Below are positions 43,312 to 56,513 of a stretch of 64,000 nucleotides of DNA, piece by piece. Source of the stretch: Thermoproteota archaeon (lineage in GTDB: Archaea; Korarchaeota; Korarchaeia; Korarchaeales; Korarchaeaceae); contig JAOZFH010000007.1 of assembly GCA_027491415.1 (NCBI GenBank), positions 17,266 to 81,265 on the forward strand, read 5' to 3'. How positions within the stretch are numbered: the first letter of the stretch is position 1; each line of letters opens with the position of its first letter. The notes under the pieces were generated by a model that was not told the origin of the DNA, did no database searches, and saw nothing but the letters and a program-made list of their open reading frames with translations. The position numbers and the translations under genes were made by a program.

Positions 43312-44467
43312 TGAACCTCTCGAGCGCGGCAACGTCCTCTAGGTAGACGAACTCTAGGGGGGCGTGTATGTTGTTGTCCACCCTGATGGCGCCTATGGCG
43401 ACCGTGGGAACCCCCCTCGACGCGAAGAGGTAGCCGTCGTTCCCTCCCAGCTCTGCGGCCATCTTTCTCGTGCCCAAGGCCCTCTCCATGGCGTCAAGCG
43501 CCTCCCTCACGAAGGGGTGGTCGGGCGGGGTCATCCAACCGGTGTTCACCTCCCCCACGAGCTTCATCGACACCTCGAGGCTCAGCCTGGCCGCGGCGTC
43601 CGCGAGGAAGGACCTCAGCTCCTCGAGCGCCCGCTCTGGATCCTCTCCGGGCACGATCCTCATGTCGAACCCTAGCCTGGCCTCGCTCGGCACGGCGTTG
43701 TGCTTCTCCCCGGCGCGCAGCATCGTGACCGTGAACCTTCCCCACACCCTCTCCACGGGGGAGTCCGGCGGGCTCGGGAGGTCGGAGAGCCTCGTGGCCC
43801 TGTGCCTCGAGAAGCTCTCCAGCTCGCAGATGAGCCTGACCAGACCGTAGATGGGGTTTCTCGTCTTGTGCGGGTATCCGGCGTGCCCTCCCTTCCCCCT
43901 GACGGTTATCCAGCCGTCGGCCACCCCGCTCGCGCCCACGCTGAGGTGCTCTATGGCGGCGTCCAGTATGACCGCGGCGTCCCCCGTGATCCCGGCCCCC
44001 TCGACGACCTCCCTTATCCCCGCGCCGCCGACCTCCTCGTCCCCGACCACGATGGCCAGGGGGTTGTACCTCAGCTCACCCTCCCGCCCGCTCTCGACTA
44101 TCCGCCTGAGGGCACCCAGCGTGGCCGCGATGGCAGACTTGTCGTCGGCCGCACCCCTCCCGTAGAGGCGGCCGTTAACCAGGAGGGGCTCGAAGGGGTC
44201 GATCTCCCTGCCGTCCAGGACCCACGGTCCCCCGGCCGGGACGACGTCGTAGTGGCTCACGAGCGCGAGATCCCTCTCGGCACCGGCGTCGAGCCTCGCC
44301 ACGACGTTGGGTACCTCCTCCCCCACGATCTCGACGCTCAGGCCGATCTCCCTGAAGTACCCGGCCACCAGCTCGGCGGCCTCACTGTAGTTCTTCCTCT
44401 CGGTGGCGTCGGTGTCGAGAGCGACCAGGCGCTTGAGGACCTCAACCTCCCACTCCACGAGGCCCAC
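43280..44467 (-). CDS. M20 family metallopeptidase (ArgE/DapE-like)
   Basis: HYDVVP, GRGAADDK, DEEVGG, GGHAG, GGND, HAPLE. Confidence 0.9.
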   Translation of the reverse strand: MGLVEWEVEVLKRLVALDTDATERKNYSEAAELVAGYFREIGLSVEIVGEEVPNVVARLDAGAERDLALVSHYDVVPAGGPWVLDGREIDPFEPLLVNGRLYGRGAADDKSAIAATLGALRRIVESGREGELRYNPLAIVVGDEEVGGAGIREVVEGAGITGDAAVILDAAIEHLSVGASGVADGWITVRGKGGHAGYPHKTRNPIYGLVRLICELESFSRHRATRLSDLPSPPDSPVERVWGRFTVTMLRAGEKHNAVPSEARLGFDMRIVPGEDPERALEELRSFLADAAARLSLEVSMKLVGEVNTGWMTPPDHPFVREALDAMERALGTRKMAAELGGNDGYLFASRGVPTVAIGAIRVDNNIHAPLEFVYLEDVAALERFITELLVPGGA

Positions 44468-44518
44468 CCGAACGTGCTCAGAGGTTCAGGTTAATAGACT
44501 GACGAGGGAGTAGGCGGG

Positions 44519-45739
44519 ATGTCCGCGCGGGTGGCGCTCATCGGGACCGGGGTGACATCGAGGGTAGTGGCGATCTCGCTAGCCAGGGACGATCTCGCCA
44601 CCTGGGTGGGCGAGCTGCTGATAGCGGATAAGGACCCAGAGGCCGCCAAGAGAGCCGCAGAGGAGTCCCAGGCCCTTACGAGGTCGAAGCAGGTCTCGTG
44701 GACCCAGCTCGACGCGCGAGACGTGGACGCGGTCGCCCGCCTGGTCAGGGGGTACGACGTCCTGATCAACGGGGCAATCTTCAAGGTGATCCCGCCCCTC
44801 ACGAAGGCGGCCTTAGAGGCGCGAGTCCCCTACATTGACTTCGGCTCAGACAGGGAGACGCTCCAATGGCAGCTCTCCTTGAGCGAGGACTTCCGGCGAG
44901 TCGGGGTACCGGCCCTCCCCGCGATGGGCGGTTCGCCCGGCCTGATCAACGTCCTCGCGAGGCTGGCCGTTGACCAGCTAGATGAGGTCCGTGAAATCCG
45001 CATGAGAGAGGGCTGGATCGACCGGGTGGACTACGAGGCCCTGGGGATTCCACTCCCGGTGCCCTACTCCTTCGAGACGATTCTGGACGAGTTCGTCTAC
45101 GGGGGTGAAGTGTGGACCGCCGAGGGGCCGAGGCCCACGCCGCCCCTGGGTGGCAGGGAGGAGTTTGAGTTCCCCGAGCCAGTGGGGAGGCAGCCTTGCT
45201 ACTACGTCGATCACCCTGAGACGTGGAGCCTCGGGGAGACCTTCAGAGACCGCGGGCTCCAACTGGTCGACTACAAACTCTCGTTTCCGGATGACCTCCT
45301 CGAGAAGTACGATCTCTTGGTAAGGCTGGGGTTCGCCTCCGAGGATCCTCTTGATCTCCCGGGGTGCGGAAGGTCTCCTATGGAGATCTTGGAGTACCTA
45401 GTCAACAGGACCATCCAGGGGAAATCCTGGACCCCCGACGACGTAGACGTGATGGTCGTCACGGCCGTGGGGTCAATCTCAGTTCGGCCAGCTACGGTCG
45501 TTGTCACCGCATCGGCCGAGTCTTGGACGAGACCTCCAGCGTCGGCCCACGGCATCTTGGTGGCCGCTCCAGCGATAACGGCCGCCAGGATGTTGGTAGA
45601 GGGAGAACTGAAGCCTGGAGTTCACCTCCCCGAGCGCGCCATAGACCCGGAGCCCTTCCTCCGAGAGGTGGCCAGGTTCGGAGTCTCGGTGGACCTCACC
45701 GTGACCACGAAGAGACTCTCCCTCCAGCGCGAGGAGTAG
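44519..45739 (+). CDS. Saccharopine dehydrogenase-like oxidoreductase
   Basis: Rossmann N-terminus (IGTG, IAD), GGSPGLINV, YSFETILDE, FPEPVG, HPE, PGVHLPE. Confidence 0.8.
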   Translation: MSARVALIGTGVTSRVVAISLARDDLATWVGELLIADKDPEAAKRAAEESQALTRSKQVSWTQLDARDVDAVARLVRGYDVLINGAIFKVIPPLTKAALEARVPYIDFGSDRETLQWQLSLSEDFRRVGVPALPAMGGSPGLINVLARLAVDQLDEVREIRMREGWIDRVDYEALGIPLPVPYSFETILDEFVYGGEVWTAEGPRPTPPLGGREEFEFPEPVGRQPCYYVDHPETWSLGETFRDRGLQLVDYKLSFPDDLLEKYDLLVRLGFASEDPLDLPGCGRSPMEILEYLVNRTIQGKSWTPDDVDVMVVTAVGSISVRPATVVVTASAESWTRPPASAHGILVAAPAITAARMLVEGELKPGVHLPERAIDPEPFLREVARFGVSVDLTVTTKRLSLQREE

Positions 45740-45779
45740 GGTCGTCCCGATCCGAAAAATCATTTTACTTTAGGAGCCG

Positions 45780-46529
45780 TTGGAGAGTCCTGTGCCGACG
45801 GAGAGGCTGTACTACCAAGATCAGTACTTGAAGGAGTTCACCGCAATAGTCGCCTCGGTGGAGGAGCTCCCGGACGGCAAGGTAGGAGCGGTGCTGGACA
45901 GGACCGCTTTCTACCCCGAGGGCGGCGGACAGCCAGCTGACACGGGGGTTCTGGAGGGCCCCTCCGGAAAGCTCAAGGTTGTCTGGGCGGAGAATAGGGG
46001 AGAGGACGTGCTTCACATCGGCGAGCTCGAGGGGTCCCTCTCCCCGGGTGATGAGGTTAGGGGAGTGCTGGACTGGGATAGGCGGTACGCCATAATGAGG
46101 ACGCACACGGCGGCACACGTGCTAATGCACGCGGTCGATCGACTTTTCGGCCGAACGGCGCTGGCCGGCAGCGGCCTGAGTGTGGGCTCTGGCCGGCTCG
46201 ACTTCGCTGCGAAGATAACACGAGATCAGCTCCCCTCGATAGAGGAGGAGGCCAATAGAATAGTCCAGATGGACGCGGAGGTCAGGGCCAACGTGCTGCC
46301 GAGGGACAAGGCAGAGGAACTCCTAGCGAGGTACGGCGCGGGCCTGGGACCCGCTCAGGAGGGGATGGAAGAGGTAAGAATCGTGGAGATCGTGGGCGTG
46401 GGCGCGGACCCCTGCGGCGGGACTCACGTCGCGAGGACCGGGGAGATAGGAGGCATCAAGATCCTCAAGAGGAAGAGCAAGGGCAAGGGTGTGGTGAGGC
46501 TGGAGTACGCGGTCTCCGGGTTCTATTGA
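45780..46529 (+). CDS. alaX: Alanyl-tRNA editing protein (AlaX-M type)
   Basis: LYYQDQY, TAFYPEGGGQPAD, HTAAH, CGGTH. Confidence 0.9.
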   Translation: MESPVPTERLYYQDQYLKEFTAIVASVEELPDGKVGAVLDRTAFYPEGGGQPADTGVLEGPSGKLKVVWAENRGEDVLHIGELEGSLSPGDEVRGVLDWDRRYAIMRTHTAAHVLMHAVDRLFGRTALAGSGLSVGSGRLDFAAKITRDQLPSIEEEANRIVQMDAEVRANVLPRDKAEELLARYGAGLGPAQEGMEEVRIVEIVGVGADPCGGTHVARTGEIGGIKILKRKSKGKGVVRLEYAVSGFY

Positions 46530-46538
46530 GGCCCCGGG

Positions 46539-47390
46539 GTGTATCCATTGCGTCCGCGGCGGGGTGTCGCGCTGGCAATCGCGCTGATGGCTCTGGTTCC
46601 GCTGATTGTGGCCGAGGCTCAGGCCGAGCCGACCCCCTGCAGGGTCACCCTGTACGAGGACGGGTGGGCCCTCGTCTCTGTGAATTGGAGTTCCGAGGGG
46701 TTCGTGAGCGCGATACCCCTGCTACCCGGGGCCGAGTCTCTCCTCGTCTCGGACAACGCGGGCGTTCCTCTGGGCTACAACGTCTCAGAAGGGATCCTCC
46801 TGGTGTGGGAGGTCTCGGACTTCGTCAACGTCACATACGAGACCCAGGCCATAACTGCCAAGGAGGGAGACGTCTGGACGGTGAACTTGAGCGTCAACCT
46901 AGGTACCTGCGAGATCCGACTCCCGAAGGGCTCGCTCCTAGTCGGAATGTCTGAGCTGCCCTCCGCGGTCACCTCGGTGGATAACAGGACAATAGTCTTC
47001 ATGGAGACCCCCTGTTGGGTCTCTTACGTCCTCCTAGCGAGATCTCACGGACCACAGCCGGAGAGGGAGCTGAGATACCTTTGGGTCGGGATCGCGACCG
47101 CCGGGGCCGTCGTGGCGGCCGCTATAGCACTCTTCCTCCGGGCGCGAGGGAGGAGGACCTCCGGAGAGAGGCCCCCGCTCTCGTACGACGACATAGCCCT
47201 CCTCAGGAAGCTGGACCAGATGGGCGGATCTGCCTACCTGTCCGAGCTTAGGGCTGCCCTCGAGATGCCCAAGACTACGATCTGGCGCAGGGCTAGGAGG
47301 CTGAGCGAGGGGGGCTTCATCGAGATGGAGAAGACCCCGAGGGGGAGCATCCTCAGGATCACTGAGGAGGGCAGGAGGGTGATCTCCTGA
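46539..47390 (+). CDS. Membrane-anchored winged-HTH protein (signal peptide, beta-rich ectodomain, TM, cytoplasmic HTH)
   Basis: C-terminal GGSAYLSELRAALEMPKTTIWRRARRLSEGGFI. Confidence 0.75.
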   Translation: MYPLRPRRGVALAIALMALVPLIVAEAQAEPTPCRVTLYEDGWALVSVNWSSEGFVSAIPLLPGAESLLVSDNAGVPLGYNVSEGILLVWEVSDFVNVTYETQAITAKEGDVWTVNLSVNLGTCEIRLPKGSLLVGMSELPSAVTSVDNRTIVFMETPCWVSYVLLARSHGPQPERELRYLWVGIATAGAVVAAAIALFLRARGRRTSGERPPLSYDDIALLRKLDQMGGSAYLSELRAALEMPKTTIWRRARRLSEGGFIEMEKTPRGSILRITEEGRRVIS

Positions 47391-49747
47391 CCACAGGCGT
47401 CAGGCTCACGAAGATCAGGCTGAAGAACTTCAAGTCCTTCCGCAGCGCCGCCATAGAGTTCCCCTCCGACTTGACCGCCATCACCGGGCCCAACGGCTCG
47501 GGCAAGTCCAACGTGATGGAGGCAGTCATGTTTGCCATGGGCGCCAGGGGCAGCTGGCTCAGGTCCCAGGGGCTCAGGGGTCTAATCAGGAAGGGGGCCA
47601 CCAGCTGCTCCGTCGAGCTGATCCTCAGGCACCCGGGCGGGGCGCTGAGGCTCGAGAGGAGGATAACGAGATCCGGAGGATCCTACAGGCTCAACGGAAA
47701 GTTGGCGTCCGCCAACGAGGTCAGAGACGCCCTAGCGGAGCTCGGCCTCAGGGCCGATGGACACAACTTCGTTAGCCAGGGCGAGGTCACCGCGGTAATC
47801 GAGTCGACCCCCAGGGAGAGGGCCGCTCTGATCCTCGAGATCAGCGGGATTGAGGAGTTCGAGAGGAAGAGAGAGGAGACCCTGAGAGAGTTAGAGCGAG
47901 TGGGGGAGCGCATCAGGGTACTCAGAGCGCTTCAGAGGGACAGACTGGACAGGCTGGAGTTCCTGAGGAGGAGGGCGGAGGCGTACCGCGAGAGGGGAGA
48001 GTTGGAGCGCAGACTGGCCTCCCTGGAAAAGGCGGTCCTCCTGAGGAGGATAGAAAGGGCTGAGAGGGCCCTAGAAGAGCTTCAACCCCCCGAGGCCCCC
48101 GCCATATCTGAGGAGGAGATTGAGGAGATGAAGAGGGAGGTCAGGCGAGCTGAATCAGAACTCAGGAAGCTGGAGGGCTCGGAAGAGCTCAAGAGAGCTA
48201 GGGAGGCCGCCACAATCAAGACGCGCATATTGACTCTTCGGGAGAGGCTTAGGTCGCTGGATGCGGAGCTAGAGGGAGTAAGAACCCTCTTGGCGACTAT
48301 GGGGGCCTCTTCGCCGCCGAAGTCCGTGACGAGCCATCCGGATTACGTGGGGATAGTCGCGGAACTCGTCAGGCCTGTGAAAGGCTACGAGATAGCGTAC
48401 AGGGCGGTCGCCGGGGCGAGGGTGTGCGACGTGGTGGTCAGGACCCTGGAGGCCGGGCTCGAGATAGTGAAGTCCCTCAGAGACGCGCGCCTGAACCGGA
48501 GGATAAGGGTGCTCCCGCTCGACGTCTTGAGGCCCCCGAGACCTGTAGATCCACCTGAGTACTCCCTCGGGCTGCTCAGGGGCTATGTCCTGGCAGAGCC
48601 GGGGATGGAGGGGCTCGTGGGGGCAATGGTCGGGAACGCCGTGCTTGTGGAGGACCTAGATTCTGTCCCCAAGTCTGACGTTGGCAGGTACCGCTTCGTC
48701 AGCCTGCACGGTGAGATCCTCGAGAGGGACGGCAGCATTCTGTCCTCTCCCCCCTCCCCCGCGCAGGAGAGGCGCCTCAAGAGGAGGCTGGAAGAGCTGC
48801 TGGAGGAGCGGGAGAGGGTCAGAGAGAAGCTCGAGGAGCTTGAGGCTAGGGCGCGGGAGCTCCCACCGCCGGAGCGTGCGCAGGAGGTTGAGGAGGTCCT
48901 GAAAGAGGTAAGGAAGAGGATAGATGAGCTCAGAACCGAGCTGGAAAGGGCCATAAGTTCGAGGCTGGCCTACGAGCGTAGGATGCGCGCCGTCGCCGAG
49001 GAGAAGGGGAAGCTGTCCCAGAGACTCGAGGAGCTTAGGGCAAGGCTTGAGAGCCTGGAGGGCGTGGAGCCAGCCGAGTCCGACGACCCCGAGTCGGAGT
49101 ACGCCGCCGTGGCGGCTAGGCTTAGGACCATTCCGCTGGTCGGGCCCGACGTGTTGGAGGAGCTGAGGAGGGAGGAAGCGAAGGCCCGAGAGATGGATGA
49201 GACACTGGCCCAGCTGGAAGAAGCGAGGGCCTCGATAGAGAGAGCCCTCGACGAGATAGCCAAGGAAAGGGACCGGGTCCTGAGGGAGACCGTTGAGAAG
49301 GTGTCGAAGGCGTTCAACGATGCCATTGGAGAGATGTTCGGCGGAGAGGGCGAAGTCTGGCTTTCGGGCGAGTGGCCGAGACTGGAGCTCGAGGTCAGGG
49401 TTAACCTCCCGGAGAAGGGAGAGGTTCCGATGGAGGCGCTCTCAGGCGGAGAGAAGTCTCTCACGGCCCTGGCCTTCATATACGCCCTTCAGAGCGTCCG
49501 ACCCAGCCCGCTCTACTTCTTCGACGAGGCGGATATGATGCTGGACGGCAGGAACTGCAAGAGGTACGCAGCCCTGCTGAGGAGGATGGTGACAAGGGGG
49601 TCGCAGGTGATCATAATCTCCCTCAAGAAGGACACGCTCGAGGAGGCGGACGCCATACTTGGCGTGAGGATGGTGAACGGCGAGTCGAAGGTGGTGGGCG
49701 TGAGGCTCGATGAGTTCGATCGCGTCGAATATAATTCTGAGGGTTGA
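47387..49747 (+). CDS. smc: Short Smc-family chromosome segregation ATPase (about 786 aa); probable CTG start
   Basis: LKNFKSF, GPNGSGKSN, Q-loop SQGEV, hinge-like domain, LSGGEKS, FFDEAD; followed by scpA and scpB. Confidence 0.88.
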   Translation: MTTGVRLTKIRLKNFKSFRSAAIEFPSDLTAITGPNGSGKSNVMEAVMFAMGARGSWLRSQGLRGLIRKGATSCSVELILRHPGGALRLERRITRSGGSYRLNGKLASANEVRDALAELGLRADGHNFVSQGEVTAVIESTPRERAALILEISGIEEFERKREETLRELERVGERIRVLRALQRDRLDRLEFLRRRAEAYRERGELERRLASLEKAVLLRRIERAERALEELQPPEAPAISEEEIEEMKREVRRAESELRKLEGSEELKRAREAATIKTRILTLRERLRSLDAELEGVRTLLATMGASSPPKSVTSHPDYVGIVAELVRPVKGYEIAYRAVAGARVCDVVVRTLEAGLEIVKSLRDARLNRRIRVLPLDVLRPPRPVDPPEYSLGLLRGYVLAEPGMEGLVGAMVGNAVLVEDLDSVPKSDVGRYRFVSLHGEILERDGSILSSPPSPAQERRLKRRLEELLEERERVREKLEELEARARELPPPERAQEVEEVLKEVRKRIDELRTELERAISSRLAYERRMRAVAEEKGKLSQRLEELRARLESLEGVEPAESDDPESEYAAVAARLRTIPLVGPDVLEELRREEAKAREMDETLAQLEEARASIERALDEIAKERDRVLRETVEKVSKAFNDAIGEMFGGEGEVWLSGEWPRLELEVRVNLPEKGEVPMEALSGGEKSLTALAFIYALQSVRPSPLYFFDEADMMLDGRNCKRYAALLRRMVTRGSQVIIISLKKDTLEEADAILGVRMVNGESKVVGVRLDEFDRVEYNSEG

Positions 49748-50372
49748 GCGCGTCCTCTCGGAGTTCCGCCGAGCCAGGGACATGCCTTGGGCCGCCAGGA
49801 CCCTCTACTCCCTGGCGGTCGAGCTTAGGAGGTTTGCCGACTCACTCGTGAGGCTGGGTGAGGAAGAGGAGGCTCCCCAGGAGACCAAACCCAGGGTCAG
49901 GCGGATTAGGCTCGCTCCCGTGGCCACCATTCCCGAGCCCCTTCTGGGGAGGGTGCCGGCCCGGAGGACCAGACCCTCAGAGTTCGCCGCGGCGATGGAG
50001 TGGGCGAGAACACTCGGGAGGAGGGCCGAGGACGGCCTCTCCAGGATAATCTCGGCGGCAATGAGCTTGGCGGAGCACCTGGACAGGGTGAGGTCCAGGC
50101 TTCTGGAGTTGATCGGCAGATCGGGACGCCGCGAGGTTCCCTTCCACGAGCTGGCCAGGGACAGGTCAGAGGCGGCCGGGGCTATCGTCTCCCTCCTTCA
50201 CATGGAGCTGGAGGGGGAGGTCGAGCTTCAGCAGAAGATCCTTTTTGGTGAGATCCTCATACGGTTGAGGCGGGTTGACCAGACCGGAGTTGGTGATCGA
50301 GGCCGCGCTCTTCATCGCCGGAAGGCCGCTCTCGGAGGAGGAACTGGCCAAGGTCGCGGGTGTGCCCCCTGA
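49710..50372 (+). CDS. scpA: ScpA-like kleisin
   Basis: N-terminal helix AARTLYSLAVELRRFADSL, C-terminal winged helix SLLHMELEGEVELQQKILFGEILI; between smc and scpB. Confidence 0.75.
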   Translation: MSSIASNIILRVERVLSEFRRARDMPWAARTLYSLAVELRRFADSLVRLGEEEEAPQETKPRVRRIRLAPVATIPEPLLGRVPARRTRPSEFAAAMEWARTLGRRAEDGLSRIISAAMSLAEHLDRVRSRLLELIGRSGRREVPFHELARDRSEAAGAIVSLLHMELEGEVELQQKILFGEILIRLRRVDQTGVGDRGRALHRRKAALGGGTGQGRGCAP

Positions 50373-50748
50373 GGAGGTGCCCGGCTGGATATCCCGACTC
50401 GAGGAGGCCTACAGGGACAGGTCCATAGCCATCGAGCGGAGGCCCACCGGGTGGTACATGACCCTCAAGCGTGAGTTCCACGACATCGTGGGGAGGCTGG
50501 CCCCGAGACCGGAGCTGACCAGGGGAGAGCTCAGGACCCTCGCCTTCCTCTTGGAGAGGGGCGGCATGTACCTGGTTGACCTCGCCAGGGTGAGGGGGGC
50601 GTCGGCCTACAGGCACGTCAAGAGGCTCAGGCGCGAGGGCCTGGTCGGAGTGAGGAAGAAGAACGGCAAGATGTACGCTTGGGCCACGAGGATGGCCAGA
50701 AACTTCTTCGAAGTGGCGCCCAGCATCGATAAAAATAGGCGGCGGTGA
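50275..50748 (+). CDS. scpB: ScpB (KITE subunit)
   Basis: IEAALFIAGRPLS, ELTRGELRTLA, VRGASAYRHVKRL. Confidence 0.88.
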   Translation: MTRPELVIEAALFIAGRPLSEEELAKVAGVPPEEVPGWISRLEEAYRDRSIAIERRPTGWYMTLKREFHDIVGRLAPRPELTRGELRTLAFLLERGGMYLVDLARVRGASAYRHVKRLRREGLVGVRKKNGKMYAWATRMARNFFEVAPSIDKNRRR

Positions 50749-52715
50749 AACCCTCTGAGGTGCCTGCCCTGTCGGGCGGCGAGTCGAGCAGGGAATACGT
50801 CTTCAAAGAGCTGCAGAGGAGAGGGATCTCCAGCGAAGTCGCCGAGTACATGATCGAGAACCTGGAGATGGCGGGTATCTTGGAGGCCCTTGGGCTCCTC
50901 CTCCTGATGACGGCGAAGGGGGACGGCATACTCCAGAGGCTGGAGGATCTCGGAAGCCTCCAGGTGGAGGAGCTGAAGCCGAGACTCGCGAGCGTCGTGG
51001 AGAAGGTGGACGAGCTCGTTAGAGATATGGCCTCCGATCCCGACGTCGCCTCGAAGCCGGGTCCGCTCTCCAGAGCGCTGGGAAAGGCGTTCGGGAAGGG
51101 AGGGGTGGCCAGGCGGTACTCACCCAGGATAGAGTCCCTCATGGATTCGCTGGAGGCGGTTCTCTGGGCGATAGAGGAGGAGGCTAGGAAAGTCCTACTG
51201 AGGAAGCTGGAGACGCTCGAGGCAGATGCGAGGGAGCTGCTGGGCGCCGCCGAGAGGGGAGAGTTCTCCGAGATAGCTTCCAAGCTGAGGGGCCACCTGG
51301 CGAAGGTGGAAGAACTCCTGAGCTCTCCCCTGAAGTCGACTTCAGATCTCGAGGCCGCCCTTATAGAGACCCAGAGGATCGACTCAGAAATCAGAGAAAT
51401 CAGAGAGGTTCTCGCCAGGTCCAAGGAGGTTAGGGCAGCCCTCGCGGCGGAACTCTCTAGGATCAGGGGACAGATAGAGTCGATCCGCCTCAAGGCGAGC
51501 AGGATAAAGGAGACAGGGATAGACCCCGTGTACATCGAGGACTCGGTGAGGTGGATCGAGGCCAGGATCGCCCGGATCGAGAACCGGTGTCCTCCAGAGG
51601 ATTTGGAGTGCATGGAGACCGCCCTCGCGGACCTGAGATCTCTGGAGCAGAGGGCTCTCAAACCCCTGCTGGACGAGCTTGAGAAGCTAGAGAGACTGAG
51701 CTCAGAGTTTGAGAACACCTTCGCCCTGATCCCCGAGGCCGAGAGGGCTGCCGAGATGCTCGACGGTGAGTTCAACACGAATGCGTTCACCGCCCTGATA
51801 GGGTCGCTGGCGGTGAAGCTGTCCTCGATCAGGGCGGGTACGGTGGTCAGGGACTACGAGGACATAGAGAAGATCGCCCAGGAGGTAAAGAGTATCAGAG
51901 AGACTCTCGAACTCCTGATATTCATCAGGAGAGCCGAGCAGAGGTCCGGGCCCATCTCCCAGCAGCTGAAGCTCGTCTCAGACGGCGACGCCGTCCTGGC
52001 CACCATAAGGGCCGCCCTTCAGGTTCCCACCATGTCACCGGAGGAGAAGGCCAGGCAGGCGCTGGCGCCACTCAAGGAGGTCCAGAGAAAGCTGTCTGAG
52101 TACCTCGAGGCCGCGGCGGACGCCGAGAGGTTCTACCCATACTGGAGGGAGTACGTCCTCACATCCCTCTCCAGGACGGGAACTCTGAGGATGGCGGACC
52201 TGGTGAAGATACCGGAGAGGTGGAGGTCGTGGGTGATCGGGAGGCTGAGGGACGAGGGGCTCGTGGAGCTCGAGGGCGATCTGGTAAAGCCCTCAGGGGT
52301 CGAAGTCCCGAGGCCCAAGCCCGCTCCTCTGATGGAGGAACGACGCCTAGAGGCGGTTAAGCCAGCCGTACGGCCCCAGGAGCCTAGGCCGTTAGGGCCG
52401 GCCGCCGCAGAGGCGCCAGAACCGAAACTCGAGGAGGCGCCCACGCAAACACCCACGGCCCCGGCGACAGAGGAGGCCGCCTTGAGGCCCGCCATACCGC
52501 CCCAGGCTCCACCCTCAGCTCCTGAGGCGCCGCCTCCGACTCCAGCAGTCGACACGATAGCCGAACTGCTTGACCTTCTGGAGGAGAAGTTGGGCGCACC
52601 CGTCAGTTCAGGCTCGGTCGCCGAACTCAGAAGGGTACTCTCGGCGGGCGGGACCGGTCGCGCCGCCAGTGACCTGCCTGATCTCCTTAGCAGACTGGCG
52701 AGAAGGATACCCTGA
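50745..52715 (+). CDS. Hypothetical coiled-coil protein with putative winged helix and Pro/Ala/Glu-rich linker
   Basis: 656 aa, long heptad-like helical region; GTGA overlap with scpB; upstream of tubulin-like gene. Confidence 0.7.
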   Translation: MKPSEVPALSGGESSREYVFKELQRRGISSEVAEYMIENLEMAGILEALGLLLLMTAKGDGILQRLEDLGSLQVEELKPRLASVVEKVDELVRDMASDPDVASKPGPLSRALGKAFGKGGVARRYSPRIESLMDSLEAVLWAIEEEARKVLLRKLETLEADARELLGAAERGEFSEIASKLRGHLAKVEELLSSPLKSTSDLEAALIETQRIDSEIREIREVLARSKEVRAALAAELSRIRGQIESIRLKASRIKETGIDPVYIEDSVRWIEARIARIENRCPPEDLECMETALADLRSLEQRALKPLLDELEKLERLSSEFENTFALIPEAERAAEMLDGEFNTNAFTALIGSLAVKLSSIRAGTVVRDYEDIEKIAQEVKSIRETLELLIFIRRAEQRSGPISQQLKLVSDGDAVLATIRAALQVPTMSPEEKARQALAPLKEVQRKLSEYLEAAADAERFYPYWREYVLTSLSRTGTLRMADLVKIPERWRSWVIGRLRDEGLVELEGDLVKPSGVEVPRPKPAPLMEERRLEAVKPAVRPQEPRPLGPAAAEAPEPKLEEAPTQTPTAPATEEAALRPAIPPQAPPSAPEAPPPTPAVDTIAELLDLLEEKLGAPVSSGSVAELRRVLSAGGTGRAASDLPDLLSRLARRIP

Positions 52716-52774
52716 GCACGCGTCGGCGATCGTTAATATTATTCCCATCCGGGCCGTCAGGAAGAGGTGGCCTA

Positions 52775-53971
52775 ATGCGCTGGTTTGGAATAGGACTGGG
52801 CGGGGCAGGTGGTGCGATCATCGACAGGACATACGACACGTTCACGGGAGAGGCCCCGTCGGCCATGGTGGACGCCGTAGTTTTCAACACGTCTGTGTCC
52901 GACCAGGCCAAGCTTCAGGTGCTCAAGGACAGGTTCTACCTCTTTGGAAGATTCGGCGGCGCTGGGGTCGGCGCCAGGTGGAAGGACTCCATGAAGGCCA
53001 TGCTGGAGCCAGAGAGCAAGGAACTCTTCATGAGGGCCGTCACCGAGAGGGGCGTAGCGAACTCGACGGCGGTGGTGCTCTCTGCGGCCTTAGGAGGGGG
53101 GACCGGCAGCGGGTCCATGCCGGTGGTGGCCGACTACGTCAGGGAGATACTCAGCGAGGGAGGCCCGCCCACTCAGCCCATAGTCTCCGTCGGCGTGCTT
53201 CCCTTCAAGTTCCCCAAGGAGAGCATGAGGTTTGCCTACAACTCTGTCATCGCGATGGCCAACATGCTCGGCAGAGTCGACTCGCTGATACTCTTGGATA
53301 ACGAGACTGCCAGAGAGATAGTCCTCAGGGACGAGCCGGGGTTGAGCGACGAGCAGGTCCTCGACAGGATAAACTCCCTCGTGGGTCGCTGCATGGTCGC
53401 CATGTCCGCGGCCGACGTGGAGCCCTTGAGGGGCGGGTACAAGACCACCTTCGACTCGCAGGACCTGAAGTCCATCCTCAGGTTCTTCGAGGCCTCCCTC
53501 ACGGTACTCTGCTACATGAAGGCTAGGGTGGAGTCCGTCGGCGGGAGCCTGGAGTTCCTGACGGAGGCAGCCCTCAGGGAGGGCTGCCTGGCCGAGGTCA
53601 GGGCGGGCACTGCCCTGAAGGCCGCCCTCGTGGTCAGGGGCCCTGAGGAGTACCTCAACGTAGACGCGGTGTTCGAGGCCAAGAGACTCCTGAGCGAGAA
53701 GATAGCTGGGGTGGACGTTAGAGAGGGGCTGGCGGTCGCCCCTGGGTCTAAGTACTTCGAGATAGCCATCCTGCTGGTGGAGCCGGAGCTGGTGAGGCTT
53801 CCCTCCCTCCTGAAGGAGGCCAGGCTCTACTACGAGGTGCACGAGGAGGAGCTCACCAAGATGGAGGATACGCCGAGGGAGGAGTTCGAGTCCTACGTGC
53901 AGGCGGTTGAGAGGCACCTGCTGACCGCGGCCGAGGCCAGGGAGGAGGCCGAGTCGGCCCCCTCGTCTTAA
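52775..53971 (+). CDS. Divergent tubulin/FtsZ-superfamily GTPase (CetZ-like)
   Basis: GLGGAGG, FNTS..D, GAGVG, signature GGGTGSG, VLPF, LLDNE, T7-like FDSQDL. Confidence 0.9.
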   Translation: MRWFGIGLGGAGGAIIDRTYDTFTGEAPSAMVDAVVFNTSVSDQAKLQVLKDRFYLFGRFGGAGVGARWKDSMKAMLEPESKELFMRAVTERGVANSTAVVLSAALGGGTGSGSMPVVADYVREILSEGGPPTQPIVSVGVLPFKFPKESMRFAYNSVIAMANMLGRVDSLILLDNETAREIVLRDEPGLSDEQVLDRINSLVGRCMVAMSAADVEPLRGGYKTTFDSQDLKSILRFFEASLTVLCYMKARVESVGGSLEFLTEAALREGCLAEVRAGTALKAALVVRGPEEYLNVDAVFEAKRLLSEKIAGVDVREGLAVAPGSKYFEIAILLVEPELVRLPSLLKEARLYYEVHEEELTKMEDTPREEFESYVQAVERHLLTAAEAREEAESAPSS

Positions 53972-54013
53972 CGATTTTTAACGGAATGCGCCGGCCGGCC
54001 GCGCGGGATAACC

Positions 54014-55465
54014 GTGGGGCACCTAGACCCCTTCTTCTACCCGGAATCGGTGGCCGTGATAGGCGCCTCCCGGGAGCCGGGCTCGGTGGGGCACGAGCTC
54101 CTCAGGGTGATGGTCGAAAACCAGAAGAGCGGCCTCTACAAGGGCAGGCTCTACGCAGTGAACCCCAAGGCGAGGGAACCCATCTTGGGCGTGCCCACCT
54201 ATCCGAGCGTCACCGACCTGCCGGAGCCGGTGGACCTCGGTGTGATCGTTGTCCCTGCGAGGATAGTCCCGGCCGTGGTGGACGAGTGCGGCAGGAGGGG
54301 GATCAAGCACGTGATCGTCATCTCAGGTGGGTTCGCCGAGGTGGGAGGGGAGGGCGTCGAGCTTCAGGAGAAACTCGTTGAGGTGGCGAAGAAACACGGA
54401 ATACGCGTGGTTGGCCCGAACTGCGTGGGAATAGTGTGCCCAGAGACGGGAGTGGACACCATGTTCCTCCCCTACAGGAAAGAACTGGGTGGCAGGGACC
54501 TCCTGTCCCTCCCGAGGCCCGGGCCGGGTAACATATCCCTCCTCACCCAGTCCGGCGCGTTTGGCGTGGCCTGCGTGGACTACATGGCTGGCGAGGGCCT
54601 GGGTCTGGCGAAGTTCGTCAGCTACGGCAACAAGGCCGACATAGACGAGGTGGAGCTCATGGAGTACCTGGCCGACGACCCCAAGACCAGGGTGATCGTG
54701 ATATACGCCGAGTCGATCGAGGAGGGGAGGAGGTTCATCGAGGCCGCCAGGAGGACCGTCCCGAAGAAGCCGGTCGTGGTGCTCAAGGCTGGCAGGACCG
54801 GGGCGGGCGCCAGGGCGGCGAGCTCGCACACAGCCGCGCTGGCGGGGGCTGACGAGGTTTACTCCGCCGCCTTCAGGCAGGCTGGCGTCGTGAGGGTCTA
54901 CGAAGTGGAGGAACTCTTCGACGTCACCAAGGCCCTCTCCATGCAGCCTCCGGCCAAGGGGCCCAGGATAGCCGTCCTCACAGACGGAGGTGGGGCTGGG
55001 GTCATGACGGCCGACGAGCTCGAGAGCAGGGGGGCCGTGGTCGTTCAGCTCTCCGAGGAGACCCAGTCCAGGCTAAGGGAGCTGATGGACAGGGGCGTGA
55101 TCCCCCCCATCTCGGCCGTAGCCAACCCGGTGGACGTCACGGGGAGCGCCACGGACGACGCGTTCGTGGAGTCGCTCCGGATCCTCTTGGACGCACCCGA
55201 GGTCGACGGGGTGATAGTGCTCCCGCTGCATCACGTGCCGGGCCTCACGTCCGACCTCCCAGACAGGATCGCGGCCGAGGTGAGGGAGAGGCGGGACAAG
55301 CCCGTCCTGGTGGCTGACATCGGGCAGGGAGAGTACGGAATCGCCTACAGGGAGAGGTTCGACGAGCTTGGAATACCGGCCTACCCGACCCCAGAGAGGG
55401 CCGCGAGGGCGATGGTGGGCTTAATCAAGTACGGGGAGGCTTTGAGGAGGATTGGGGCTCTGTGA
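54014..55465 (+). CDS. acdA: ADP-forming acetate/acyl-CoA synthetase alpha subunit (second copy)
   Basis: VAVIGAS, GPNCVG, TQSG, GNKAD, SHTA, NPVDVTG. Confidence 0.9.
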   Translation: MGHLDPFFYPESVAVIGASREPGSVGHELLRVMVENQKSGLYKGRLYAVNPKAREPILGVPTYPSVTDLPEPVDLGVIVVPARIVPAVVDECGRRGIKHVIVISGGFAEVGGEGVELQEKLVEVAKKHGIRVVGPNCVGIVCPETGVDTMFLPYRKELGGRDLLSLPRPGPGNISLLTQSGAFGVACVDYMAGEGLGLAKFVSYGNKADIDEVELMEYLADDPKTRVIVIYAESIEEGRRFIEAARRTVPKKPVVVLKAGRTGAGARAASSHTAALAGADEVYSAAFRQAGVVRVYEVEELFDVTKALSMQPPAKGPRIAVLTDGGGAGVMTADELESRGAVVVQLSEETQSRLRELMDRGVIPPISAVANPVDVTGSATDDAFVESLRILLDAPEVDGVIVLPLHHVPGLTSDLPDRIAAEVRERRDKPVLVADIGQGEYGIAYRERFDELGIPAYPTPERAARAMVGLIKYGEALRRIGAL

Positions 55466-55471
55466 GGAGTC

Positions 55472-55762
55472 TTAGTCCTCCCCCTCTCCCCTGTCCGGCT
55501 CTCGGGCCTCCTCCAGCCTGACAGGCCGCACCACCTCCCCTTCCCTCTTTGGACGTAGCGCGTAATACAGGCTGGCGATTATCTTCACGGAGGCCGCGAG
55601 CGCTCCCCATACGAACCACACGATTATCGACAGGGCGATTAGAGTGAGGACGACCGCGCTCAGCAGGGGGAGGTACTTCAATATCGACAGGAGGATGACC
55701 GCCGACAGGACCAGCAGGAGGGTGGCGAGGGTCAGGATCGCCAGCATGTCCCTGGCCCTCAC
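55472..55762 (-). CDS. Small hypothetical membrane protein
   Basis: Two to three hydrophobic helices and charged tail; start uncertain (55747, 55762 or 55798). Confidence 0.6.
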   Translation of the reverse strand: MRARDMLAILTLATLLLVLSAVILLSILKYLPLLSAVVLTLIALSIIVWFVWGALAASVKIIASLYYALRPKREGEVVRPVRLEEAREPDRGEGED

Positions 55763-55802
55763 GTCTGAGCGCCCCTCCCTCGAGCCGGGTGTCCGCATGT
55801 GG

Positions 55803-56513
55803 TCAGTCTCCGAAGGTCAGCTGGAACCCGCTGCTCCCCCCTCTTGGGATGTACCTCGCGAGCTCCGCGGCCAGCGCCTGTATGTTCATGGACTGGAGGA
55901 TGACCTTCCCCGGGCCCCTCAGCGTCGCCAGGAACAGCCCCTCTCCCGCGAACAGGATCGATCTTATCCCGCCGACCCTCTCGATGTCGTAGTCCACGCT
56001 AGCGTCGAAGGCCACCAGCTGCCCGGTGTCGACCTTCAGCACCTGCCCGGGCTTGAGGTCGTACTCGAGGAAGTCTCCCGCCGCGTGCACGAAGACAGTG
56101 CCGACCCCGCTGACTTTCTCCATTATGAGGCCCTCACCTCCGAAGAGCGCCGCCCCGAGCCGCCTCGCGATTCCCGGCTTGACCGTGACGCCGTCGGTGG
56201 CGGCCAAGAACCCACCCCTCTGAACGTAGTACTCGATGGTCCCGTCCAGCTTCAGGGCCGTTATCTTGCCCGGCACCGTGCCGGAGAAGGCGACCACCCC
56301 AGGGCCTCCCTCGGCCGTGAACTCGGTTAGAAAGAAGCTCTCCCCCGCTATCTTCCTCATTATCCCCTGGATGAAGCCTCCCCTGACCGTGGCATTCAGC
56401 CGAACGTTCCCCGACATGTGGTTAAGGGCGCCCGCCTCGGCGTAGATCGTCTCGCCGGGCTCCAGCTCCACCAGAACCATCTGAAGGTTATCCCCAATTA
56501 TCTTGTACCTCAT
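55803..56513 (-). CDS. AIM24 / TIGR00266 family protein
   Basis: LEPGETIYAEAGA, GESFF, LFGGEG, GEGLF, GPGKVILQS. Confidence 0.9.
   Translation of the reverse strand: MRYKIIGDNLQMVLVELEPGETIYAEAGALNHMSGNVRLNATVRGGFIQGIMRKIAGESFFLTEFTAEGGPGVVAFSGTVPGKITALKLDGTIEYYVQRGGFLAATDGVTVKPGIARRLGAALFGGEGLIMEKVSGVGTVFVHAAGDFLEYDLKPGQVLKVDTGQLVAFDASVDYDIERVGGIRSILFAGEGLFLATLRGPGKVILQSMNIQALAAELARYIPRGGSSGFQLTFGD

Follow-up and report, generated by a model that had tools for sequence, protein, structure and literature searches.

The window, by which we mean the whole 64 kb stretch of DNA that was analysed, comes from a Korarchaeota genome assembly (GCA_027491415.1, labelled G000) of 1.78 Mb in 63 contigs that is 96% complete. 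Between positions 46539 and 53971 it carries six tightly packed genes, all on the + strand, which encode a membrane protein with a winged helix, the condensin subunits Smc, ScpA and ScpB, a 656-amino-acid (aa) helical protein referred to here as CC656, and Tub, a CetZ-like GTPase of the tubulin superfamily. A sequence-only reading of this DNA had placed these six genes exactly where we find them, with the same gene overlaps and the same gap of 59 nucleotides (nt) between CC656 and Tub, and had proposed that they form a single segregation machine in which CC656 is the adaptor between condensin or DNA and a tubulin-like filament. The gene calls are confirmed. Scans of positions 44000–56500 gave no Rfam or tRNA match, and the opposite strand has nothing that competes with the six genes. 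For the arrangement as a whole we favour, with moderate confidence, two separate modules lying side by side, namely a housekeeping condensin and a cytoskeletal pair made up of CC656 and the CetZ-like Tub, with CC656 belonging on the Tub side. The genes and promoter-like elements are as follows.

46539–47390, + strand: membrane/winged-helix protein, 283 aa, with an N-terminal signal or transmembrane segment, a second hydrophobic stretch and a C-terminal winged helix
47387–49747, + strand: Smc, ~785 aa, with SMC_N and SMC_hinge domains and a likely CTG start
49710–50372, + strand: ScpA (kleisin), 220 aa, recognised with an orthologue profile against the PDB
50275–50748, + strand: ScpB, 157 aa, PF04079
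50729–50737, + strand: AT run ATAAAAATA within the 3' end of scpB, TATA-box-like, candidate CC656 promoter
50745–52715, + strand: CC656, 656 aa, characterised by orthologue alignment and an AlphaFold2 (AF2) model; no Pfam or NCBIfam match
52733–52743, + strand: AT run TTAATATTATT, then GGAAGAGGTGG, TATA-box-like, candidate Tub promoter
52775–53971, + strand: Tub, 398 aa, CetZ-like tubulin-superfamily GTPase, PF00091
54014–55465, + strand: ACS, an ADP-forming acyl-CoA synthetase-like protein, the 3' neighbour of Tub, which serves as a control for inherited gene order

The relatives used for comparison belong to one family with five genera, g1 to g5, of which g1 includes the window genome, and the class as a whole is represented by 40 genomes. 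Tub was found in 16 of these 40 (E≤1e-15): in all five g1 genomes (the window genome included), the single g4 genome, all four of g5, all five of g2, one of the 21 of g3, and none of the four genomes from two other families. The surroundings of Tub were compared across the window genome and the other 15 that carry it. A CC656 orthologue lies directly 5' of Tub in 10 of the 16, drawn from three genera (G000, G002, G003, G004, G008, G011, G005, G009, G012 and G015). In a fourth genus, g4 (G007), a single gene stands between the two, an orphan 464-aa open reading frame (ORF; L032 10714–12108) with only a weak coiled-coil match and with no homologue in the other 35 of the 36 family genomes searched, which we treat as a putative lineage-specific insertion. 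The region is cut by contig ends in G001 and G018, and the two genes lie apart in G014, G017 and G042. The pair persists where both flanks have changed between genera. CC656 is preceded by scpB in g1 and g4 and by genes of 370 aa in g5 and 426 aa in g2; Tub is followed by ACS in g1, g2 and g4 and by a gene of 257 aa in g5. The g2 pair has an overlap of 4 nt, suggesting that the expression of the two genes is coupled.

The link to condensin does not behave in this way. The smc-scpAB genes adjoin CC-Tub only in g1 and g4, so the association between smc-scpAB and a tubulin-family gene, for which the earlier reading had suggested a synteny survey, is confined to two sister genera. These are sisters in the Tub tree (support 93) and share the whole order Sacch_dh-AlaX-smc-scpA-scpB-CC-Tub-ACS; given this relationship and the collinear neighbourhood, the condensin adjacency represents one evolutionary event and not a repeated association. 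At the junction itself, the end of scpB covers the first 4 nt of CC656 in the window; in G007 a gap of 3 nt separates the two genes. Genus g2 retains CC-Tub though Smc and ScpB were not found there, and in g5 and g3 the smc-scpA-scpB genes are followed by unrelated genes, some of them convergent. The metabolic ACS gene adjoins Tub in more genera than smc does.

Tub is the third tubulin-family gene of its genome, the other two being FtsZ genes with an FtsZ_C domain (PF12327) on contig C51. Its GTPase domain (PF00091, 3.5e-17) contains the nucleotide-binding signature GGGTGSG, which is invariant in 12 of 12 orthologues. The best sequence matches in the PDB are the CetZ entries 4b46, 3zid and 4b45 (E = 2.2e-15, 6.8e-15 and 1.1e-10), identified by their Foldseek names as CetZ1 and CetZ2 of Haloferax volcanii and CetZ of Methanosaeta thermophila, compared with 9.7e-07 (~1e-6) for the best FtsZ chain. 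Foldseek returned the same CetZ entries at ranks 1–4 (~1e-14) for the predicted structure, with FtsZ and tubulin at 5e-11. By both sequence and structure, then, Tub is closer to CetZ than to FtsZ or tubulin, with the reservation that the C-terminal domain of the AF2 model, built from 12 orthologues, is of low confidence (predicted local distance difference test (pLDDT) score <50 across residues 213–335). Identity to the solved CetZ chains is 19–23%. The CetZ_C domain (PF21011) scores 17.4 bits in the window protein, below its cut-off of 21.6 (E = 0.0032), and is matched by 8 of the 12 orthologues at E≤0.01 (best 2.1e-07). Tub does not qualify as an FtsZ, having no match to FtsZ_C and only 42.7 bits against a cut-off of 295 for TIGR00065, nor as a TubZ, with 23.4 bits against a cut-off of 27 for the TubZ-type family Tubulin_2 (PF13809).

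A quick tree was built from 35 tubulin-family proteins of the window genome and related genomes, with no named Thermococcales or Halobacteria references among them. All 12 Tub rows group in a single clade (99), which has a long branch (0.8), lies beside other long-branch rows and falls on the side of the CetZ_C-bearing proteins (90 in the Shimodaira–Hasegawa-like approximate likelihood ratio test, SH-aLRT). FtsZ1, FtsZ2 and four genes of a Korarchaeum FtsZ-like array fall on a separate side from Tub. The T1 loop reads GGAGG in Tub, and GQCG, GHCG and GQAG in three CetZ_C-bearing references. Judged from its sequence and predicted structure, Tub is CetZ-like, in a clade of its own, and not a proven CetZ. 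At the T7-like stretch, g1 and g5 have TTFDSQD and the one g4 genome has TTLDSQD. In g2 the sequence is ELSAQS or DLSAQS, where both acidic residues are gone, and the g2 proteins may not be able to promote GTP hydrolysis within a filament. A word-seeded search for Tub among 5.8 billion proteins, in which the 7999 candidates with the most shared words were scored, yielded only 14 matches at E≤1e-10, and one orthologue, 86% identical, is from a 'Candidatus Korarchaeota archaeon' (NCBI). The CetZ survey PMC9856176 bounds the family with Thermococcales proteins and names only euryarchaeal orders; in its main text, as distinct from its supplementary species table, the strings 'Korarchae' and 'TACK' do not occur. 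PMC9723716 mentions FtsZ homologues in Korarchaeia and, for other TACK lineages, a new clade that falls between FtsZ2 and CetZ, to which Tub may be related.

The partner gene encodes a protein of quite different character. An AF2 model of CC656 based on nine orthologues is all-helical and confident (mean pLDDT 79.7). The earlier reading had described a coiled-coil protein, but the model is not one long coiled coil. Its parts are instead the following.

Residues ~14–68: small helical N-terminal domain
Residues ~74–478: stacked long helical hairpins
Residues ~440–516: winged-helix-like domain with the motif YPxW...IPxxWRxW (helix 491–503, strands 507–516)
Residues 520–599: disordered linker rich in Pro, Ala and Glu
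Residues 601–654: two C-terminal helices

Compared with PDB folds, the model gave no match at E≤0.001, the best being aminomutases and designed helical bundles (E ~0.05–0.3, TM ~0.1), and in the ESM Atlas the best score, 0.81 to an unnamed archaeal cluster, was below the level at which we count a match. A profile search of 1.84 billion representatives retrieved a family of just 31 at E≤0.001 and 11 at E≤1e-30, and the YPxW...IPxxWRxW motif is present in all of the better matches. The Pro-rich linker and C-terminal helices occur only in g1 and g4 and are absent from the g2 and g5 orthologues. Within the family, the CC genes next to Tub stand apart as a set of orthologues (E from 1e-59 to 1e-13, where most paralogues have 1e-5 to 1e-12), with the qualification that g2 paralogues score as high as the Tub-adjacent copies. 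We also considered whether CC656 might be a second kleisin or an Smc-like coiled coil, and dropped the idea in view of the hairpin-bundle model and the lack of ATPase motifs or any kleisin match.

Paralogues of CC656 are found in a variety of other settings. The 1720-aa protein P0029 contains at least six tandem copies of the YPxW...IPxxWRxW domain (residues 596–1472), a domain that is in no Pfam family. In the Korarchaeum-like genomes of g3, a paralogue of 528–537 aa overlaps the gene downstream of it, which encodes a Ras/Arf-like small GTPase; an Arf-family GTPase (E 1.6e-49) is close by, and five FtsZ-like genes in a row are found ~3.5 kb away. Another g3 locus has a paralogue on either side of a Roadblock/LC7 gene and an Arf-family GTPase (4.4e-54). 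The g2 paralogue, of 590 aa, is oriented divergently from a Ras-like GTPase and Roadblock/LC7. These g3 and g2 clusters are at L046 3592–9158 and 12463–17547, L047, L057 and L048 5467–8529. Two g5 paralogues are located directly 3' of an XPD/Rad3-like helicase with DEAD_2, HBB and Helicase_C_2 domains (L049 26–2326; L051 3686–7081). The CC656 family may be a set of GTPase-associated scaffolds.

We predicted the structure of a complex between CC656, supplied as residues 14–520 and 596–656, and Tub as the scored partner, with each chain represented by an alignment. The earlier proposal of a multimer prediction between the adaptor and the tubulin-like GTPase was borne out in the sense that the model passes its controls: the complex scored 0.70 (0.70, 0.68 and 0.70 in separate runs) and the best of three controls 0.00. 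The runs share at least 88% of their contacts, and the pLDDT of the partner is at least 86. On the CC656 side the predicted interface consists of residues 452–470 and 487–493, that is the winged-helix-like motif, including the invariant residues A460, W467, P490 and W493. On the Tub side it is formed by residues 250–269 and 326, a strand-loop-helix of the C-terminal domain that includes the invariant residues R251, L262 and E264. The C-terminal fragment of CC656 (596–656) is outside the predicted interface. The CC656 interface columns are more conserved than the rest of the protein (0.64 vs 0.45 elsewhere; 0 of 10000 random sets were as high). The model supports the binding of CC656 to Tub but does not show it.

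The condensin genes encode a recognisable Smc-ScpAB complex with some unusual features. Smc has N- and C-terminal ATP-binding cassette (ABC) head halves and a central hinge (SMC_N, PF02463, 9.3e-46 over residues 1–737 of a 758-aa frame; SMC_hinge, PF06470, 2.4e-15), and scores best for SMC_N in the genome, where open frames of 578, 912 and 250 aa also have matches above the cut-off. The NCBIfam model SMC_prok_A (TIGR02169) matches at 2.1e-120 in three stretches, with 403 bits against the full-length equivalog cut-off of 729, and the protein falls short of the usual Smc arm length, at ~785 aa against profiles of ~1170 positions. Similarly short orthologues occur in g1, g3, g4 and g5 (open frames of 764–833 aa, 38–43% identity outside the genus), making short arms a family trait and not the mark of a damaged gene; they would give a rod much shorter than in the condensins that have been studied. 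The start of the gene is also atypical. In three genomes of the genus (G000, G004 and G002), the frame has no ATG, GTG or TTG from the stop at 47363 up to the Walker A motif; the first canonical start, 47471, is just 5' of the Walker A motif and its use would remove the N-terminal strand. On this sequence evidence the likely start codon is a conserved CTG at 47387, which overlaps the upstream TGA and follows GGAGGGTGA at a distance of six bases, and in G003 a GTG is found three codons further on.

As a single sequence, ScpA matches nothing in Pfam or NCBIfam. Comparison of an eight-orthologue profile with the PDB identifies it as a kleisin with an N-terminal domain (6ivh_A, an ScpA, 0.0017) and a C-terminal winged helix (4i99_C, 3e-10; 5xns_C, an ScpA, 3.5e-9). 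Relative to the 195-aa orthologue of G004, which is 91% identical, the window protein has a 24-residue C-terminal extension (50298–50372) reaching deep into scpB, which by its sequence appears to be a lost stop or small frame change at the 3' end. ScpB is a kite subunit (PF04079, 9.2e-23, 81 bits against a cut-off of 27.4) that matches TIGR00281 below the cut-off (9.3e-12). The complex shares with Smc-ScpAB elsewhere the same head halves, hinge, kleisin ScpA and kite ScpB and the order smc-scpA-scpB; it differs in the length of Smc, in the smc start and in its ScpA of 180–220 aa, which Pfam misses. We conclude that smc-scpA-scpB is the housekeeping, short-armed condensin of this Korarchaeota genome and is found in most of its family. 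The condensin of Korarchaeota is already known biology: PMC7055376 lists smc, scpA and scpB in three of three Korarchaeota species, with smc next to scpA.

Smc was found in 15 of 16 g3 genomes searched, in contrast to Tub with its 1 of 21; G006, a g3 genome that is 99% complete, gave no Smc match at E≤1e-20. In g2, an Smc orthologue was found in none of the five genomes at that threshold and ScpB exceeded the Pfam cut-off in none of the five, and the sole Smc match (2e-24) covers the N-terminal residues 8–269 within a 609-aa frame. These genomes (G005, G009, G012, G015 and G018) are 71–93% complete, and Smc and ScpB are to be read as not found in them, their absence not being proven; the genus may have lost Smc-ScpAB. 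The 283-aa membrane/winged-helix gene is outside the conserved units. It is present 5' of smc only in genus g1 (G003, G004), with none in G007 or the other genera, and the Pfam matches of its winged helix-turn-helix are weak (HTH_27, 0.0034; MarR, 0.0068; both below cut-off, in the range E 0.003–0.01).

Promoter-like elements also divide the locus. The sequence-only reading had itself cautioned that AT-rich patches might be internal promoters that make the last two genes a separate unit, and this caveat is now backed by the rarity of such runs, their position mostly before starts and the recurrence of TATA-like boxes in several genera. The 64-kb window, which is 62% G+C, has just 15 runs of at least eight A/T, and four of these are in the condensin/CC-Tub locus; 7 of the 15 are centred 28–48 nt 5' of an ORF start codon, based on rough ORF calls. 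The run at 52733–52743 is 32 nt before the Tub ATG, and similar boxes are present in G004, G003, G011, G008 and G014; none is visible 5' of Tub in G009, where the CC and Tub genes overlap. The run at 50729–50737 is ~27 nt before a GTG at 50760, the start used by the CC orthologue of G004, and a comparable AT-rich box lies 5' of the CC gene in nine of nine genomes compared (from g1, g4, g5 and g2), the weakest being that of G007. All 17 sequencing runs listed for positions 49000–54500 cover small shares of the stretch (0.05–0.13) as DNA contigs, with no RNA run among them. Judging by these boxes, CC656 and Tub probably have their own promoters. Two further runs were seen, one just inside scpA (49728–49736), ~25 nt before a GTG at codon 16 of the called frame and near the ORF start of G003, and one at 53974–53981, 33–40 nt before the ACS start. 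By the same kind of sequence evidence, each gene group may have a promoter of its own.

The explanation that we prefer is therefore that of two adjacent modules, whose adjacency would be an inherited gene order in two sister genera. Tub would presumably polymerise with GTP, as its intact nucleotide-binding and T7-like motifs imply, and CC656 is predicted to dock through its winged-helix-like domain on the strand-loop-helix 250–269 of the Tub C-terminal domain. In the architecture common to tubulin and FtsZ, this region is on the side of the protofilament and not at its ends. A contact at this position would allow the elongated, helical CC656 to decorate, bundle or anchor Tub filaments, in the manner of the filament-binding adaptors of other tubulin homologues. 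By analogy with CetZ, the role of the pair would most likely be in cell shape or internal organisation, as opposed to condensin-coupled DNA segregation. The CC656 and Tub pair is so far known only from this Korarchaeota family.

Several points weigh against this interpretation. The calibration of the complex score, in which the 0.70 mark was attained by 58 of 80 solved complexes and 2 of 110 mismatched pairs, is only a rough guide for a prediction with three chains and its own alignments, and the score expresses model confidence, not a measurement. The controls left out FtsZ1 and FtsZ2 of the same genome as partners, as well as the domain of a paralogue. For Tub, the interface columns have only a slight edge in conservation over the remaining ones (0.71 vs 0.62; 900 of 10000 random sets as high), and the CC656 interface residues are kept in all paralogues, including those of genomes without Tub and the 1720-aa protein, so that their conservation may reflect the fold or another partner and is not specific evidence for Tub binding. 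The predicted interface falls in the region of Tub (213–335) where the AF2 model is of low confidence, and its placement on the fold thus rests on secondary structure and the general tubulin/FtsZ architecture. Polymerisation-coupled GTPase activity may not be general, given the g2 sequences that lack the acidic residues of the T7-like stretch. In three genomes Tub and the CC gene lie apart, and since scpB and CC656 overlap or meet end to end in g1 and g4, transcription may read through from one into the other.

Some of the same observations could be explained if CC656 and Tub were neighbours by inherited order without binding, CC656 being a general scaffold with other partners and Tub acting alone as a CetZ-like filament, which we regard as unlikely. 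The paralogues beside Ras/Arf-like GTPases and Roadblock/LC7 in g3 and g2, and beside the XPD-like helicase in g5, would fit such a scaffold, as would a winged-helix-like motif common to all paralogues and the splitting of the pair in three genomes, and the ACS gene demonstrates that neutral gene order can persist in this family. What this explanation does not account for is a complex model that passes where three controls all score 0.00, a pair that survives the replacement of both its flanks, the 4-nt overlap in g2 that suggests coupled expression, and the separation of the Tub-adjacent orthologues from the paralogues, the last being tempered by the g2 paralogues, which score as well. A second alternative, improbable in our estimation, is a condensin-independent partition system of the type III kind, with the winged-helix-like domain of CC656 binding DNA that the Tub filament moves. 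TubZ-TubR(-TubY) are the type III partition systems of plasmids and phages, in which TubR engages the C-terminal tail of TubZ. The resemblance lies in a tubulin-superfamily GTPase encoded beside an HTH-type adaptor (the winged-helix TubR) and a coiled-coil component (the coiled-coil/HTH modulator TubY), and TubZ is among the fold matches of Tub (4ei7_A, 3.7e-10), although only at rank 50. Tub is nearer to CetZ than to TubZ, and its Tubulin_2 score is below the cut-off. Neither iterons nor centromere-like repeat arrays are present at positions 46000–54500, where direct and inverted repeats are scattered and tandem repeats amount to at most 2.4 copies of 9–12 nt within coding sequence. The locus is chromosomal and conserved across the lineage, with no plasmid or virus genes seen among its neighbours. 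In the model, the would-be recognition helix contacts Tub and not DNA, and the contact is with the globular C-terminal domain of Tub, whereas TubR engages the TubZ tail.

The single segregation machine, with CC656 linking Smc-ScpAB (or its DNA) to a Tub filament at least in g1 and g4, we judge to be very unlikely. It draws on the tight packing of the genes in these genera, down to the overlapping or nearly abutting ends of scpB and CC656, and on the linker and C-terminal helices of CC656, which are restricted to the same genera, are outside the predicted Tub interface and would be free for another partner. A gain of these elements in that lineage would coincide with the CC gene coming to abut scpB. 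That the g1/g4 tail docks on ScpB, ScpA or Smc, with the CetZ-like filament positioning or moving the condensin-bound chromosome, is accordingly a specific form that the idea could take, and one to which we give very little credence. Against any such machine are the single evolutionary event behind the condensin adjacency in its collinear neighbourhood, the survival of the pair in g2 where Smc and ScpB were not found, the condensin operons of g3 and g5 that stand alone, the TATA-like boxes before CC656 and Tub, and a metabolic gene whose linkage to Tub extends to more genera than that of smc. What survives of the original proposal is CC656 and Tub as a unit, on the strength of their adjacency in 10 of 16 genomes and a complex model that passes its controls; its functional tie to Smc-ScpAB does not.

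The pair thus interpreted as a cytoskeletal module can be compared with other tubulin-family systems. Its nearest solved relatives by sequence and fold are the CetZ proteins of Haloferax volcanii and Methanosaeta thermophila, with which Tub shares a GTPase domain carrying GGGTGSG. It differs from them in its low identity, its long-branched and separate clade, the GGAGG T1 loop, a CetZ_C score below cut-off, its Korarchaeota host and its dedicated 5' partner gene; according to the abstract of PMC9856176, the neighbours of cetZ include type IV pili, biosynthesis and sugar epimerase genes. With regard to the predicted function of CC656, the closest parallels are dedicated proteins that bind a tubulin-family filament and tie it to something else. 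ZipA and ZapA are FtsZ anchors or filament binders of this kind, and SepF is the archaeal FtsZ anchor (PMC8178401). CC656 differs from all of these in having no sequence or fold similarity to any solved protein and no identified membrane-targeting element, and in a predicted contact with the folded C-terminal domain of its partner as opposed to a C-terminal peptide.

The idea of a condensin-tubulin machine is tempting but unsupported, and the locus illustrates how collinear order in sister genera can mimic an operon. Were the g1/g4 tail to dock on condensin after all, this would be a tubulin-based chromosome-organising apparatus in an archaeon. CetZ-type tubulin homologues shape haloarchaeal cells, and we know of no dedicated CetZ binding partner. 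The main text of the 2023 CetZ survey (PMC9856176) places the family solely in Euryarchaeota, and a Korarchaeota CetZ-like clade with a linked partner from a new, tiny family is not described in the literature searched. The locus points to just such a clade, to a linked partner that has no Pfam or PDB relatives, and to a concrete interface between them that can be mutated. Korarchaeota are uncultured and the single member to have been imaged is an ultrathin filament (PMC7613921), which makes their cytoskeletal toolkit, to which CC656 and Tub would belong, of particular interest.

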